From Eledone cirrhosa (lineage: Eukaryota): DNA of 64,000 nucleotides. Position numbers and translations under genes: made by a program. Position 1 is the first letter of the stretch; each line of letters starts with the position of its first letter. The notes beneath the pieces are model-generated. The model was not told the DNA's origin, did not search any database, and saw only the letters and a list, made by a program, of their open reading frames with translations. The stretch is taken from positions 50,840,001 through 50,904,000 of the forward strand of contig OZ024743.1 in the NCBI GenBank assembly GCA_964016885.1, read 5' to 3'. This document shows, piece after piece, positions 3,731 through 63,175 of the stretch.

Positions 3731-3935
3731 AAAACAAAGAGGGTGTGGTAAGAAACCAGATGGACCATAACCCACCAGAGAACTCGATACTTAGGGTAGT
3801 GGAGTGGGTAATATGAAAAGATTCAGGATCCCGACGGCTGAGCTCCGGCCGTTTCGACAGCTAGATCCCAACTGTTCGGATCTAGCTGTTGAAACAGCCG
3901 GAGCTCAGCCGTCGGGATCCTAAATCTTTTCATAT
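3731..3935 (-). mobile_element. Hairpin-capped PLE-terminus-like cassette with hammerhead 3' half
   Basis: Arms 3811-3868 and 3878-3935 with a 9-nt loop; minus strand reads cGAAACggc...gccGTC; flanked by (TA)n on both sides; homologous to 3984-4190. Confidence 0.7.
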
Positions 3936-3983
3936 GTATATATATATATATATATATATATATATATATATATATATATATAT

Positions 3984-4190
3984 ATAGGAACGAGTAGGAC
4001 CCCGACGGCTGAGCTCAAGCCGTTTCGACGGCTAATTCTGGACAGAATTCGCGTCCAGAATTAGCCGTCGAAACGGCTTGAGCTCAGCCGTCGGGGTCCT
4101 ACTCGTTCCTATTACCCACTCTACTACCCTAAGTATTGAGTACTTTGGTGCGTTATGGTCCACCTGGTTCCTTACCACATTTCCTCCGTT
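3984..4190 (+). mobile_element. Hairpin-capped PLE-terminus-like cassette with hammerhead 3' half
   Basis: Perfect arms 3984-4043 and 4053-4112 with a 9-nt loop; GAAAC-GGCT-tgagctc-AGCC-GTC stem III with a GUC triplet; (TA)n on both sides. Confidence 0.72.
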
Positions 4191-4600
4191 ATATATATAT
4201 ATATATATATATATATATATATAGAGAGAGAGAGAGGGAGAGAGAGAGAGAGAGAGAGAGAGAGAGAGAGGGAGAGATGATTGTATGTGTGTATGCGTGT
4301 GTGTGTACAAATTCGGAACATTTTTGCATAACGTTGCATTTTTCAAAGCAATTACTTAAGTATTATTATGGGAAGTATCACGAGCTGAATCTAATCTGCA
4401 CCTCCCACCTTTACCACTCCTTTCGGTACCTCCTCTATACAATAGACAATTAAATTAAACTGTAAATGCACACACACACACACACACACACACACACACA
4501 CACACACACACACACACACACACACACACACACACACACACACACACACACACACACACATACACACATACACACATACACATGTGTATTTATATATTAT
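4191..4600. repeat. (TA)n, (GA)n and (CA)n microsatellites
   Basis: Direct reading. Confidence 0.95.
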
Positions 4601-5044
4601 ATATACATTTCTGCATGAATATTATCCACTATTGACGTATACATATATATGTATGTATGTGTGTGTGTGTGTTAACATATGTAACAAGTTTTCAGATTCG
4701 GCCCCGTTCTGTAACGTGTTTATTACTATACTCTCGAGTTGAAATCAATGATGTTTAGTAGACGAAACCTTTGGAAGCCCCTCGTACGGACGGTACCAGT
4801 AATTCAAAGGTCCAGCTTAGTCATATACTGTGTCACACTGCCCACTTCCATTCTAAATTCCATTCTAAATATGGCTACCACCACCTTTGCATCTGATAAT
4901 CTCTTTTATTCCTGACTCTGAAATACTTTTGTTTTATATATCCGAGTTTTTAGTCACTTGCTGTTGTTTGGGAATATATGTTATATAATTTTATCTTATT
5001 TGAAAAAAAATTTTAAATAATAATTTTAACGAAAAACCTACTAT

Positions 5045-5406
5045 AGATATATTTCTTTATTTAAGAAAAGGGGAAATACAAAGACATATGGCGGGGATTT
5101 TACATACAGTCATGTAAAAAAAGTTTTAACATGAAAATATAACAATCGAAATCCCCAATAGGGTGGGAGGCGTTACAAATCGGTTGCTTTATACCCTGTA
5201 GATAGAACAACCCACAACTTCAGGAGCATGTTGTACAAGTGCTCCTTTCTTCCTTTTGCTCTCTTCTTCAACCTACAGATTTATATACAAAGAAGGCCAT
5301 TTTTGGCACATTCACCCACCTTTCAGTAAATTTACTGAGGTGCAGTACCTCTCTCTCCACTCTGATTCTCCTTCTAAAATGGTACCTAAAGAAGGGAATG
5401 AGTTGT
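5045..5406 (-). mobile_element. 5'-truncated 3' fragment of Tx1-clade LINE
   Basis: Aligns by eye to 7905-8290 (3' UTR plus the KYHFR.RIRVERE..H.SKFTERWVN coding end). Confidence 0.85.
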
Positions 5407-59282: not shown

Positions 59283-59284
59283 TA

Positions 59285-61950
59285 TTTACAGTTGTATAAA
59301 TAACATTACAAATTGTCCACAATTCTTTCCAAATGAAAATAGACTCAAATATAAACACAGAAAATAAATACAATTAATTATGAACCTTACAAATACAATG
59401 CGACAAGATAAACAATCAAAGCGAAAGAAAGGTAAAAAAGGTGAAACAAAAACAACTATCAATTCACCTCCAAGTGTGACAATCGGCCACACTTCACAAG
59501 GGTCAACAGAATTTTTTTGAGGCAAGCCAATACGCTGAAAGCATTACTGCAGGTGATGGCAAGACTAAAGCACTGAAACAACCAGGCACCATCACGAGCA
59601 TCACCTTTCACATCATTAAGACGAGCTACCAACAATGACAAGAACTTCAATGTCAGTGGCCCAACTCCACCAAATGTCTCCAACGCCACAGGCTGGAATA
59701 TATAATTGTTTGACAGTTCCAGGTATTTTCAGATTTTATTCCATTCGGCAATAGACACAGTGACTCTCACATTTACCATGGCATCCATGATATTGGACGG
59801 AGCAAAAGAGTCACTGACTGTGGTGTCCCAGATGAGACACCTGCCTCTAACCCAGGGAGGAAGGGTAAAGATGTCTGGTCTCTTCCCACCAATTCTTGAT
59901 AATCCAACCAGCTCCAGAACTGAGGGGATATTTACCTCAGTCAGGGCTCATTTAATGATCAGGTTTAACTCTGTGTGGTGGGCAAGACAACCAGCATTCA
60001 GGCAGGACAGACCATAGAGGCCTGTAGAGTCGAGGGACCTACCACAGTGAAATCTCAGACCCCAACAGACACCAGCTCCCACTCAGAGCACAATGGAAAT
60101 ACAGAGCTCATCCTAACTGAGAAGACCACCAATGTTGGCCACAGGCAGGACATCAATCCAGTTCCCCGAGAACTTTGCGCTTGCAGAAAGTAAGTGGCAC
60201 CTAGAAAATTAATCAGAATGATTAAAGAGAGAGTTAAGTTTCCCTTGAACACAGATTGTCACATGCTCTCTGCTTTTGTCTATCCTAGTATCGGGAACTG
60301 ACAAACTTAGCTCTCTCCACTAGTAAAGCTTCAACCATCTCCCTGATGGAACTAGTCCATGTTGGAAAGGGAAGGGTGTCACCCATAAAAAGGGAGCAAG
60401 CGTAGATGGGAAAAAGAAAACAAGGTAGAGACAAAGATGAGCATTTATGCAGACCAAAACCTCCAATTCTCTAAAGAGAATCGGACACTGACCAGGTCTT
60501 CAAGTTCGCTGAATATTAAGTTGTCAAAGCGTTGGAGAGACAATGGGAAGATGGACTAACTCTGAGGAAATACAACAATTTAGGAATTGGCAAGTAATTC
60601 CTAAGTATAAAAATAACCTTGGGGAGGCTCAATGGCCTTGAGGTTTTTTTACAAGTTGCTCGAGATTAGCCAACTAAGAATGAAAGATGGACTTGAAGGT
60701 AAATGGGAAGGACTCTGTAAACAGGTCAACAGTCCGCTGGTTTGAAGCTGGGTAGTTGAGGGGCCTCTGCTCGCATTTGGAACTGTTGATGTGAAGGCCC
60801 CTATGACCCAATTCCTCAGTCATCATCTACGCGGTTGCAAAGACCTTATCTGGAGGACCCCCGAAACAAGCATCATTCAGATCCCTGTCTTGGTGACGTC
60901 ATCAATGCCCAGTGCAAAAAGAGCAGGTGACCCTGTTGGACCCCTGAGGCAGATAGAATGAAATGGTCACCGAAGGAGAGGTAGGAGGGATCCCGATAGG
61001 CTTGTCAAGCTATATGGGGACAGACATACTTTCGCAGTGAGCACCCAACTACTATGGTGCTAAGGTCACCATTGGGCCTTGAGAGGCCAAATAGTTTAGC
61101 CCCCAAACAACAGGGGGTGAATATAAGGGAGGGCACTCTTGGTCAAGAACAGGTTAATGTACTGGGTGACGTTCTCAAAGAGCTCTAGACCAGCATCTCT
61201 GGCCGACAAAGAGAAACCATCCTTGAGGTGCTGAGGTCAAAGCCCAATCCTTGCACCAGAACCCACCGAAAAGGATATAACCACCTTCCTGACATTAACG
61301 TGAAGACAGGTTGCAAATAACCTGGTGGATCAGGCCTGAAGATGTTTCACTCTCAGTTGGTTGAGTAAATCAGGAGTGTGCTGGGTGAGGGAGGACAGAG
61401 AAGAGAGGAGAAGTTCGGTGATCGTCCATAAATTGGAACTGAGTTGATCACCGACCTGAGATGAGTTGGGGTGGAATCAAACAACTTGAACTGCCGTATT
61501 AGGGAAGATGTGAGGGATCCGGTTTTCGTGTTTGTCACGTGGAGAGAAGCTAGAGCGAACAAGAAAAGTTTCTGCCAATCCGAGATGTTGTTGGATAAGC
61601 AGATGTTCTTCACCAGCTTGAAGAGGGTATGGAGGAAACAAGTCCAAGCTCCCCTTGGGACACTATTGATGAGTTTCAACTTAGACAAGCCCCGGAGGGC
61701 AGCAACAAAATCTTCAACAGGGATCTGAACATCAAAGCTAGGTTCTGATCTGCGAAGTAAGTCGGAGTTGAAGTGGCATTGGTTACAAGTCCAGTTTGAA
61801 AAACTTTCAGCTTGAACCCTAGTAATGGCAACACAGCTCCTGCATTGGCATTATTAAGGTACTAGCTAAGGCTACATAAGTGACATTTGATGACCTTTAG
61901 ATATCGACTGGTATGGGAGCAGAGAACACAGTTTGGTGGTGGATTGGCAG
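59285..61950 (-). mobile_element. Decayed CRE-clade non-LTR retrotransposon
   Basis: QGVQQG...ALFALGIDD and LNDA..GGP RT remnants; CLACL..H..LN, GKRPDIFTLPPWVRGRCLIWDTTVSD, FQPVALETFGGVGP, WLFQCFSLAI..SNA endonuclease tail; N-terminal Cys-rich segment. Confidence 0.82.
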
Positions 61951-62479
61951 CATCAGATAATAGGAGGGAGAGGATATTAGCTCCTGGAATGAGGTGGGCA
62001 TATTGTGGAACGGGAGGATAAAGGATGATAGGATGTTACAAAATCCTTTAACCATGCAGGTCTCCTGGTCACTCAGCGCATGACTTTAAAATAATTTATA
62101 TTTAAATCTAAATGGTGACATTATTTTTATTAATAAACAACCAATCTTATATCTACCATCAGATGGCATGTAAGAGGGTTGACGACACGGAAATAGGTTG
62201 GGGGCGAGCTAAAACAGAGAAATGAAATCTGTGTTTGTGAGGAAATGTATGTAAGATGTTGAGATGAATGTTGTGTGTGTGTAAACATTTAAAACAGTAA
62301 TGCATGTGTATGTATGTATACATATGTATGTGTATATATATATATATATATCATCATCATCATCATCACCGTTTTACGTCCGTTCTTCCACGCTAGCATG
62401 GGTTAGACGGGTTGTCCTGTTGTGGGCAGTGTCCGGTCGGCTGACCATGCCGTGCTCATATGGGAACTAATATGTATAT

Positions 62480-63005
62480 ATGTGTGTCCCGAGTTCAATC
62501 GGGGGTAACCACAGTAAGTCAGGTACTCAATACATAGCAGAGTATAAATATTTAATATATAAATGACTTCTACAGGACTAGAACTGTTTCATTCGAAGCT
62601 AATCATCAGGAAAGCTGACTGTCAATGTGATATGGTGGTATTTGTGTGTGTGTGTGTGTGTGTTTGATTGTACAGACCTTACCATTTGCAGACTTGACCA
62701 TCCTTTAACATGTTAATACAGCCACTTCATGAAAACCCTTTTTTTTACTTAGAATAAATGAACCTTGAAAACTAGGAGTGCCTGTATTTGTATCATTCTG
62801 TATTTTTCTCTAAATATAGTTTTTCAAAGAATCCCCATTCTTTAAATCCATCAGCCAACGACCTCCACCCATCCCAATCACCCCCGTCCCCTACAACCAG
62901 AAAATGTATAAATACCACCATAACACATTGACAGTCAGCTTCTCTGATGATTTCCCTCAAATGAAACAGTTCTAGTTCTGTAGAAGCCATTTCTATATTA
63001 AATAT
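62480..63005. mobile_element. Inverted pair of PLE pLTR-like ends with hammerhead cores
   Basis: 62550-62643 is the reverse complement of 62910-63005; cores read CTGATGA-tt...aat-GAAAC-agttcta-GT(C/T). Confidence 0.72.
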
Positions 63006-63021
63006 ATATATATATATATAG

Positions 63022-63175
63022 CCAGGGAGTGTAACAATTCTGTTACACCCAACAGCAGAGGTCCGACGAGCTTTTGATTCCAGGGTCGGGCAAGATCGAT
63101 ACAGATCGAACCTTGAGCTGATCAATAGCAAAACACCACGCCACCAATCAATAAACGTAATGAAGGCGTAACAAA
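63022..63175 (+). mobile_element. Small hairpin plus degenerate hammerhead cassette after (TA)n
   Basis: gtgtaaca-attc-tgttacac hairpin, then CCGACGA...ccttgagctgatcaatagcaaaac, sharing sequence with 46898-46921. Confidence 0.5.

Follow-up and report, generated by a model that had tools for sequence, protein, structure and literature searches.

Head-to-head pseudo-LTR stubs of Penelope-like elements in (TA)n repeats of Eledone cirrhosa, with a predicted start site where many arms stop

By sequence comparison, the small fold-back cassettes inserted in (TA)n microsatellites of a 64,000-nt stretch of the Eledone cirrhosa genome (GCA_964016885.1, OZ024743.1, 50,840,001-50,904,000; termed here the window) are head-to-head stubs of pseudo-LTRs from several families of Penelope-like elements (PLEs). 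Their overall architecture, an inverted copy with a one-sided tail, is already known; what appears to be new is the positions at which the arms stop. We consider it probable that the stubs arose from two cDNAs which were primed at both ends of one cut, ran off the start of a capped RNA and were then joined. The genome contains young insertions in the tens of thousands together with an intact parent ORF, and the end positions lead to a concrete, testable model.

Parent elements and the cassettes of the window

Fold-backs were located by self-BLAST of the repeat-masked window. Loci elsewhere were picked through exact patterns, mostly on a single contig, which biases them to young copies, and genome copy numbers are counts of exact pattern matches. 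All-against-all extension of copies was confounded by common palindromes and served only for finding long references. The sample of family A, to which the 3987 cassette belongs, comprises 173 tail arms with their tail ends and 100 inverted arms with their junctions.

The initial annotation had proposed that the cassettes are extreme truncation products of PLEs. This holds insofar as the families at 3987, 56894/57115/62550, 20469, 51174, 51574 and 51936 align to pseudo-LTRs joined with PLE ORFs; the truncation is not random, because the ends pile up at a promoter-defined point. Each stub corresponds to the pseudo-LTR and ORF-start region of a PLE, with ORF links in families A, B (locus L105), C (L143, L196), E (L151, L170), F (L116) and G (L223, L225, L229), and none established for D and H. 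The family A parent is an intact 3,531-bp tandem array (L116-L118), in which tandem copies act as pseudo-LTRs and the tail reads into the start of a 716-aa ORF. This single ORF combines RT, with motifs recognized by eye, and a GIY-YIG-type endonuclease. It had no match in Pfam or PDB. Among Atlas clusters its closest neighbors are animal proteins, and GIY-YIG or RVT_1 families appear in that ranking from position 10 onward. Inverted 5′-truncated copies with a tail at one end, and a predicted type I hammerhead within the pseudo-LTR (full-length A, B, E and G; D and H by eye), complete the PLE features. Placed by its motifs against Craig et al. (2021; PMC8557442), the family A parent carries Hydra-clade traits: DKT, an RWK-like motif (RWR, not RWK), a CxCx5C linker, CxxC/CxH, no CCHH, and a (TA)n target.

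Both PLE coding fragments reported in the initial annotation are present. The GIY-YIG endonuclease fragment (21947..22312, minus strand; Pfam 1.8e-7) has no established link, as a parent, to a neighboring stub. The RT fragment (46951..47913, minus) gave no match in the Pfam search and is not significantly similar to the ORF of the family A parent. It adjoins a pseudo-LTR (46712..46950, plus) that has both hammerhead core halves and is related to the cassette at 63022 (73% over 75 nt).

Two stubs belong to family A. In the one annotated at 3984 (3987..4189, plus; fold-back 3987-4109), an inverted short arm (3987-4043), a 9-nt junction and a tail arm (4053-4189) follow each other; each arm stops at position +2 relative to the predicted start site, and the hammerhead lacks its first half. 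The other, at 3731 (3732..3936, minus; fold-back 3815-3931), represents a diverged subfamily, with the tail arm on the minus strand, the short arm on the plus strand, a junction at about 3869-3877, and only the 3′ half of the hammerhead. The family C stub at 20469 (20446..20664, plus; fold-back 20471-20547), whose parent is tied to a PLE ORF, consists of an inverted arm and a tail arm that meet at a 3-nt microhomology (20506-20508), and has lost hammerhead stem I. The family D stub at 22441 (22443..22640, plus; fold-back 22444-22567) is old (90 exact 20-mer matches) and lacks the first core half, while other family D copies have a complete type I hammerhead by eye. In the family E stub at 51174 (51174..51484, plus; fold-back 51185-51357), with a parent tied to the end of a GIY-YIG ORF, the arms join at the predicted start site and a U3-A8 hammerhead lies in the tail arm.

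The site at 51574, annotated as a possible member, proved to be a family F stub (51576..51760, plus; fold-back 51577-51701) with a parent tied to a 787-aa PLE ORF; it has no internal hammerhead, and longer copies have a hammerhead-like core about 150 nt upstream. At 51936 lies a family G stub (51843..52268, minus; fold-back 51977-52225), from a family linked to PLE ORFs, with the tail arm on minus, the short arm on plus, a complete type I hammerhead in each arm (52030 minus, 52172 plus) and 3,628 exact 30-mer matches.

Family B is represented three times. The stub at 56894 (56826..56990, no single strand; fold-back 56894-56948) carries its tail on the minus strand and, on the plus strand, a complete hammerhead (56927), and that at 57115 (57100..57253, plus; fold-back 57115-57150) has its tail on plus and arms joined within hammerhead stem II. 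The insertion at 62550/62910 (62488..63003, no single strand) has a tail arm on minus (to about 62642) and a longer plus arm that retains the promoter region. Finally, the family H stub at 63022 (63021..63195, plus; 1,339 pattern matches) joins about 15 nt of inverted tail end to a short-site arm, and its hammerhead is degenerate.

The expected fold-back inverted repeats were recovered at ten sites, including 6118-6161, with E-values between 1e-5 and 1e-76. This part of the annotation fails at 62550/62910, where the inverted pair (62561-62642/62911-62992) has arms 270 nt apart and forms no tight hairpin, and at 63022, where window self-BLAST found no long fold-back. The second possible member, at 6111, was rejected; it is a private local inversion (6118..6161, no strand; one arm with 2,407 matches) in an unrelated repeat that has a Helitron-like end near 6270-6345 and no hammerhead core. 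Further repeats occur in the window at 20246-20382 and 58923-59069.

Fixed outer ends, variable centers and hammerhead cores

Across loci of families A, B, C, E, G, D and H the outer ends are fixed and the center is variable. The annotated adjacency to (TA)n is borne out: such flanks are present at most named sites, and in family A (TA)n is contacted by 168 of the 173 tail ends and by 98 of the 100 inverted ends, compared with 13.5% of random 16-mers. The short AT-rich tail of the annotation exists in modified form, being family-specific, 70-110 nt long (about 70 nt in family A) and confined to one arm; tails of different families have a common stem-loop motif.

Fold-back reads are a known long-read artifact and (TA)n is hard to sequence, so that hairpins of this kind could be products of assembly. 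Scattered substitutions between arms, fixed unequal ends and subfamily structure all speak against it, as do inverted-to-direct arm joints in contigs of the public runs X2 and X5, although these runs may share one source and no contig spans the whole window stretch. We regard an assembly origin as hardly conceivable.

Hammerhead cores were sought with a type I descriptor, using shuffled sequence as control. As a class they are above chance, with 4 matches in the window (mean of 0.18 and maximum of 2 in 40 shuffles) and 142 in 80 fetched 10-kb loci (5-7 in 3 shuffles). A hammerhead-like core in every unit, as first annotated, was not borne out: 3 of the 12 named sites pass, namely 51174 (the U3-A8 variant), 51936 (both arms) and 56894. 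The site 62550/62910 has both core halves yet fails the descriptor; 3731, 3984, 22441 and 57115 keep the GAAA..NUH half alone; the canonical-looking first half at 20469 is a product of the junction, its parent core being a variant; and no core was found inside 51574 and 6111. Full-length family A copies pass, with a predicted three-stem fold, and so do families B, E and G; D and H were recognized as type I by eye. When five hammerheads and one tail were folded, their energies were no better than those of shuffles (z of -0.1 to -1.3), thus fold stability gives the hammerheads no support. An Rfam scan of the window returned no hammerhead among the 150 matches listed of 185, which were mostly weak miRNA matches, and repeat annotators would similarly mislabel the stubs as MITEs or microRNA hairpins.

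The annotation had alternatively seen in the cassettes a class of non-autonomous ribozyme retroelements mobilized by PLE RT, considered here as retrozyme-like or MITE-like units transcribed and copied as a whole. Such a class would fit the very large number of copies (24,864 and 27,663 exact matches of arm patterns genome-wide) and the whole hammerheads of some families, and PLE-derived non-autonomous retrozymes exist (bioRxiv 10.64898/2026.07.22.740005). A copied unit of MITE or SINE type would have identical internal structure at many loci, but 94 of 100 family A junctions are distinct. The upstream TATA box is missing from most cassettes, most family A stubs keep half a ribozyme, and the units are inverted where retrozymes are tandem. 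Because of the differing junctions, the lost TATA box and the halved ribozymes, this branch goes unsupported, and we consider it very unlikely.

Where the arms stop and how the stubs may form

Family A has an initiator about 30 nt downstream of a TATA box. Relative to this initiator, 98 of 173 tail arms stop between -4 and +8, only 2 within the 74 nt from -5 to -78, and 19 farther upstream; the inverted arms stop between -4 and +8 in 76 of 100 cases. Genome-wide, a pattern covering +4..+25 has 24,864 exact matches and a different pattern that spans +1 has 4,620. A comparable cliff lies at TATA+29..35 in family B (35 of 62 arms, with two rows duplicating a single locus; 19 of the 34 aligned to a matching subfamily, since the positions of ends aligned to a mismatched one are uncertain) and in family E (17 of 32 arms), at TATA+33..37 in family C (13 of 30; the TATA is weak), and by eye in family H. 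No clear cliff was found in families F (2 of 38 short arms) and G (ends spread, subfamilies mixed). An extra, cap-like G precedes +1 in 20 of the 33 non-T arms that end there, compared with 3 of 33 for arms that end at +2 (p=2e-5); left out of this count are 43 arms in which +1 is preceded by T, the base found in the parent as well. From the motifs and the G excess, we infer that the cliff is the transcription start site. Against this stands the Penelope promoter of D. virilis, which has no TATA (PMC2377424). The only RNA run found gave contigs with 6% of the words, none of them placed on the window stretch.

Two joined cDNAs might also produce such a cliff if the RT pauses there, if the endonuclease cuts the AT-rich DNA of the pseudo-LTR, or if a 3′ splice site lies at that point. 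In A and B, AT-rich sequence precedes +1, AG occupies +1/+2 in A, B, C and E, the D. virilis Penelope intron ends at hammerhead helix I (PMC4209133), and the lizard enzyme cuts its own pseudo-LTR (PMC11167929). However, the family E cliff lies outside AT-rich sequence, the distance from cliff to TATA-like box is constant while the position relative to the hammerhead varies by family, and the extra G is specific to +1. A constant upstream exon was looked for beyond the cliff and none was found, which speaks against a splice acceptor. All considered, a cliff with a cause other than the cap appears improbable.

The standing proposal for PLE inverted repeats is self-priming on an antisense template (PMC3846280), where a single template or cDNA snaps back and is copied into a palindrome. 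Microhomology at 37 of 100 family A junctions fits this, and so does the finding that the two arms share a subfamily in 74 of 77 pairs, against an expectation of 35, as a single-molecule copy would predict; gene conversion could also explain this agreement. The arm lengths are harder to reconcile. A copy of the tail arm cannot extend 5′ past its template, yet in 25 of 100 pairs the inverted arm exceeds the tail arm by more than 5 nt (the reverse holds in 17, and 58 are equal), and at L011 and L021 it does so by hundreds of nt; a copy of the short arm cannot provide the tail; and nothing would make an antisense RNA terminate at a sense initiator with an extra G. Some of the asymmetry could reflect later deletions. 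Since either arm can be the longer one, snap-back is weakened and rather unlikely, and asymmetry in both directions together with arms of one subfamily points to two templated syntheses.

Under the preferred reading of two cDNAs joined at one cut, the pseudo-LTR would hold a promoter whose start, judged by motifs, lies about 30 nt below the TATA box, with two internal RT start sites 60-130 nt downstream of that start. The RT-GIY-YIG protein would cut both strands of AT-rich DNA and prime cDNA from both sites, as extrapolated from the lizard PLE, for which PMC11167929 describes both-strand cleavage and two RT starts in vitro; tail length would equal the spacing of the two sites. When sites near the RNA 5′ end are used, the two cDNAs would have grown to about 60 and 130 nt when they arrive at the cap, in a strong-stop-like manner. 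Their 3′ ends would often be trimmed, or extended by untemplated or re-copied bases, before joining and fill-in, and the product would be a one-tailed palindrome, probably a dead end. A smaller set of arms ends at the hammerhead cut site, and self-cleaved RNA may be their source: the ends of 11 of 173 family A tail arms fall at +41..43, compared with 2 in the preceding 7 nt, an excess that may be a trace of self-cleavage and that could equally come from a local repeat or from stalling of the RT at stem III. If genuine, it might be a sign of hammerhead cleavage in vivo, for which RNA-seq gave no indication in the lizard element (PMC11167929).

The origin of inverted repeats and one-sided tails in PLEs has been named as an open question (PMC8557442). 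We lean slightly toward a general answer, in which PLEs carry out paired priming on both cut ends from one RNA, with an integrated double strong-stop palindrome as the main product here; tens of thousands of copies would then record each family's start and cap, a minority would record hammerhead cleavage in vivo, and the long-unexplained repeats and tails would be accounted for. In the freely available main texts on strong-stop DNA, twin priming and head-to-head self-priming, we found no paper with a start-site model for PLEs.

Comparison with known systems

Retroviral minus-strand strong-stop DNA is a short cDNA that runs off a capped RNA end, and in L1 twin priming two primings at one target lead to an inversion. 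In the scheme proposed here, both primings would instead use fixed internal sites close to the 5′ end of the RNA, with the products integrated facing each other.

Inverted 5′-truncated copies with one-sided tails occur in PLEs in general, and Hydra-clade PLEs resemble ours in RT with C-terminal endonuclease, the protein motifs listed above, the hammerhead and (TA)n (Craig et al., 2021; PMC8557442). The unit here is larger (3.5 kb; generally under 3 kb there), the tail is longer (about 70 nt; 30-40 there), and most sampled arms are start-site stubs. In Anolis Poseidon PAc (Frangieh et al., 2024; PMC11167929), the available text describes two internal RT starts that set the tail, cuts of both strands, an AT-rich target and uncleaved RNA as the main template, with inverted copies left unexplained and no reads ending at the hammerhead cut; in the present loci the genomic products cluster where transcription is predicted to start, with a smaller number at the cut site. 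Minimal PLE hammerheads (Cervera and de la Pena, 2014; PMC4209133) share the type I form, a palindromic stem III and the U3-A8 variant, whereas several families here have U-U at the stem II base or an altered position 4. Opposite-strand hammerhead pairs 100-700 bp apart were ascribed there to truncated PLEs, and for such pairs the present loci reveal parents, fixed ends and a center tied to the promoter. Non-LTR retrozymes are likewise short, non-coding, PLE-related and hammerhead-bearing, but they form head-to-tail tandems with at least two whole ribozymes (bioRxiv 10.64898/2026.07.22.740005), an arrangement absent from our cassettes, which are single head-to-head pairs with unique junctions.

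Cassette families, their parents and neighbouring repeats

A 35-mer from the cassette at 3987 (family A) has 7,230 exact matches in the genome, and the layout of the family is constant across 60 loci: (TA)n, inverted arm, variable centre, direct arm and (TA)n, where the outer end of the inverted arm is fixed and the direct arm extends ~70 nt beyond it as a tail. Long copies continue upstream into the end of a Penelope-like element (PLE) ORF. Protein search located the parent in a 3,531-bp tandem array, as intact open frames of 784 codons that give 716 aa when counted from the first Met; the array itself terminates in an inverted copy, and in it the tail is the beginning of the reading frame. 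The motifs of this parent fit the definition of the Hydra clade given in PMC8557442 (section 11). Intact ORFs of family A, nearly identical to one another (protein 99-100%), stand in tandem arrays at L116-L118 (G000:C1:437.19-437.22 Mb) and L119-L122, which suggests recent or ongoing activity and makes them candidate material for in vitro work.

Family B (56894, 57115 and 62550/62910; 27,663 exact matches of a 27-mer) and families C (20469), E (51174), F (51574) and G (51936) share the layout of A and adjoin PLE ORF pieces in sense direction. Families D (22441) and H (63022) have cassette layout and hammerheads, the link to a PLE parent being established for A, B, C, E, F and G only. A stem-loop just inside the tail is common to otherwise unrelated families (3805 on the minus strand, 4118, 22576, 56883 minus, 57193 and 62543 minus), is also present in C, G and H, and is likely a protein-binding or RT-positioning signal.

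The window (G000:C4:50840001-50904000 of a 3.0-Gb assembly) has a GC content of 39% and very abundant simple repeats. The initial annotation described fold-back units with hammerhead cores beside (TA)n, and the majority of cassettes do abut (TA)n. Self-BLAST of the masked window recovered a local fold-back at ten of the named sites; 62561/62911 is an inverted pair with a 270-nt gap and 63022 has none. As a class the hammerheads exceed shuffled sequence, with four type I descriptor matches in the window against a mean of 0.18 in 40 shuffles; 80 fetched loci of 10 kb gave 142 matches, against 5-7 in three shuffles. Of the 12 named sites, however, three pass this descriptor and the others fail, four holding the 3′ half alone and 51574 and 6111 no core. 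Some predicted hammerheads are variants: B, C and D have U-U where stem II begins at its base, and most C and H copies differ at position 4.

The site at 6111 was rejected as a cassette, being a private inversion within a different repeat with a Helitron-like end; this family (5900-6345; 2,407 matches of a 19-mer) has a duplicated terminal hairpin, and the private inversion measures 44 nt. Another inverted repeat family adjoins (TA)n at 20246-20382, with 51 sites in the 1.07 Mb of loci that were fetched, and 58923-59069 is a likely further stub, with a hammerhead-like core on the minus strand and a tail motif on the plus strand (14 sites in the same 1.07 Mb). tRNA-like heads at 21052-21205 and 63571-63626 (Rfam tRNA, 38 and 30 bits) are probably tRNA-derived SINEs, and a dispersed repeat at 12794, 43816, 46150-46570, 51025 and 59100 looks SINE-like, presumably resembling cephalopod SINEs. 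A GC-rich direct repeat of 1.7 kb pairs 7898-9605 with 10191-11907 at 76% identity. At 51174-52270 and many other loci, stubs of different families are nested side by side within one (TA)n tract; an insertion would seem to provide new target sites for later ones.

Arm ends and the predicted start site

The family A parent carries a TATA box 31 nt above an initiator-like motif, itself inside hammerhead loop II, whose A we number +1. Arms were mapped at 170 loci not selected for an ORF, keeping tail arms at >=88% identity (173 after removal of one duplicate) and 100 clean pairs, with seven mispaired or double-tail rows left out. Tail arms end at -4..+8 in 98 cases, at -5..-78 in two, farther upstream in 19 and farther downstream in 54, and 76 of the 100 inverted arms of clean pairs likewise end at -4..+8. 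Genome-wide, +4..+25 is exact in 24,864 arms, against 4,620 matching a pattern that spans +1.

Arm ends also pile up at TATA+29..35 in B (35/62) and E (17/32), and at +33..37 of a weak TATA in C (13/30); F and G gave no clear cliff in the same mapping. Relative to the hammerhead the cliff shifts between families: A has it within loop II, B and C on the first base of stem I, and E ~40 nt above stem I. It therefore tracks the promoter and not the ribozyme. Of 33 arms that start exactly at +1 and are not preceded by T, 20 follow a G; at +2 the figure is 3 of 33 (p=2e-5). RTs are known to add untemplated C opposite the cap. T precedes 43 further arms, frequently as part of a long run; this is consistent with A-tailing of cDNA, but such a T is indistinguishable from the parental one.

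Proposed copying and joining of the two arms

For a lizard PLE, PMC11167929 shows that AT-rich DNA is cut on both strands, that RT starts at two internal sites which delimit the tail, and that uncleaved RNA serves as template; a dimer is predicted. For the cassettes, the link to a parent and the arm-end positions are observed, while a start site, paired priming and joining of cDNAs are inferred: two RT starts near the RNA 5′ end would yield cDNAs of ~60 and ~130 nt, both reaching the cap, and their head-to-head joining would form the cassette, and use of start sites in a downstream pseudo-LTR would give the long copies.

Alternatively, one molecule could fold back and be copied. Across the 100 family A pairs, the inverted arm reaches >5 nt farther 5′ in 25, the tail arm in 17, and 58 are level. 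Snap-back from the tail arm could not yield a product longer than that arm, and copying the short arm would leave the tail unaccounted for; RNA was therefore likely the template for both. Of the 77 pairs that were typed, 74 have arms of the same subfamily, against an expectation of 35; once pairs with two arms of the commonest type are set aside, 26 of 29 agree. This points to a single RNA or a single complex, with gene conversion as a possible cause.

Junctions comprise 37 with microhomology, nine blunt, 15 with re-copied arm-end pieces, four with AT runs and 35 with other short inserts. They are distinct in 94 of the 100 pairs. Cassettes are therefore not propagated as units, and the earlier proposal of a new class of non-autonomous ribozyme retroelements is not supported. 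In contig joints from public runs linking 4031-4043 to 4108-4109, several have a tail arm that begins near +58, at the short RT start site, as though two RTs shared one RNA and the first halted at the second's point of initiation; tail arms ending at +55..63 number 7 of 173.

Tail arms ending at +41..43 number 11, against two in the preceding 7 nt (p=7e-5), and at L029 and L034 both arms end there. These ends are suggestive of templates cleaved by the predicted ribozyme; RT stalling at stem III would fit as well, and three of the cases use local microhomology.

Comparison with published elements

The cassette elements are known in kind. PMC8557442 already describes a truncated copy in inverted orientation, a tail on one side only and a bias towards (TA)n, and PMC4209133 the opposite-strand hammerhead pairs and U3-A8 core; PMC12910113, in the part available, holds nothing further for comparison. 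The start-site model was not found stated in the openly accessible literature searched. Of the PLE promoters described, that of PMC3846280, which also proposes antisense self-priming, has TATA plus initiator in a pseudo-LTR, and that of D. virilis Penelope is internal and TATA-less (PMC2377424). Set beside these systems, the pattern of arm-end positions is a new, testable clue to PLE integration.
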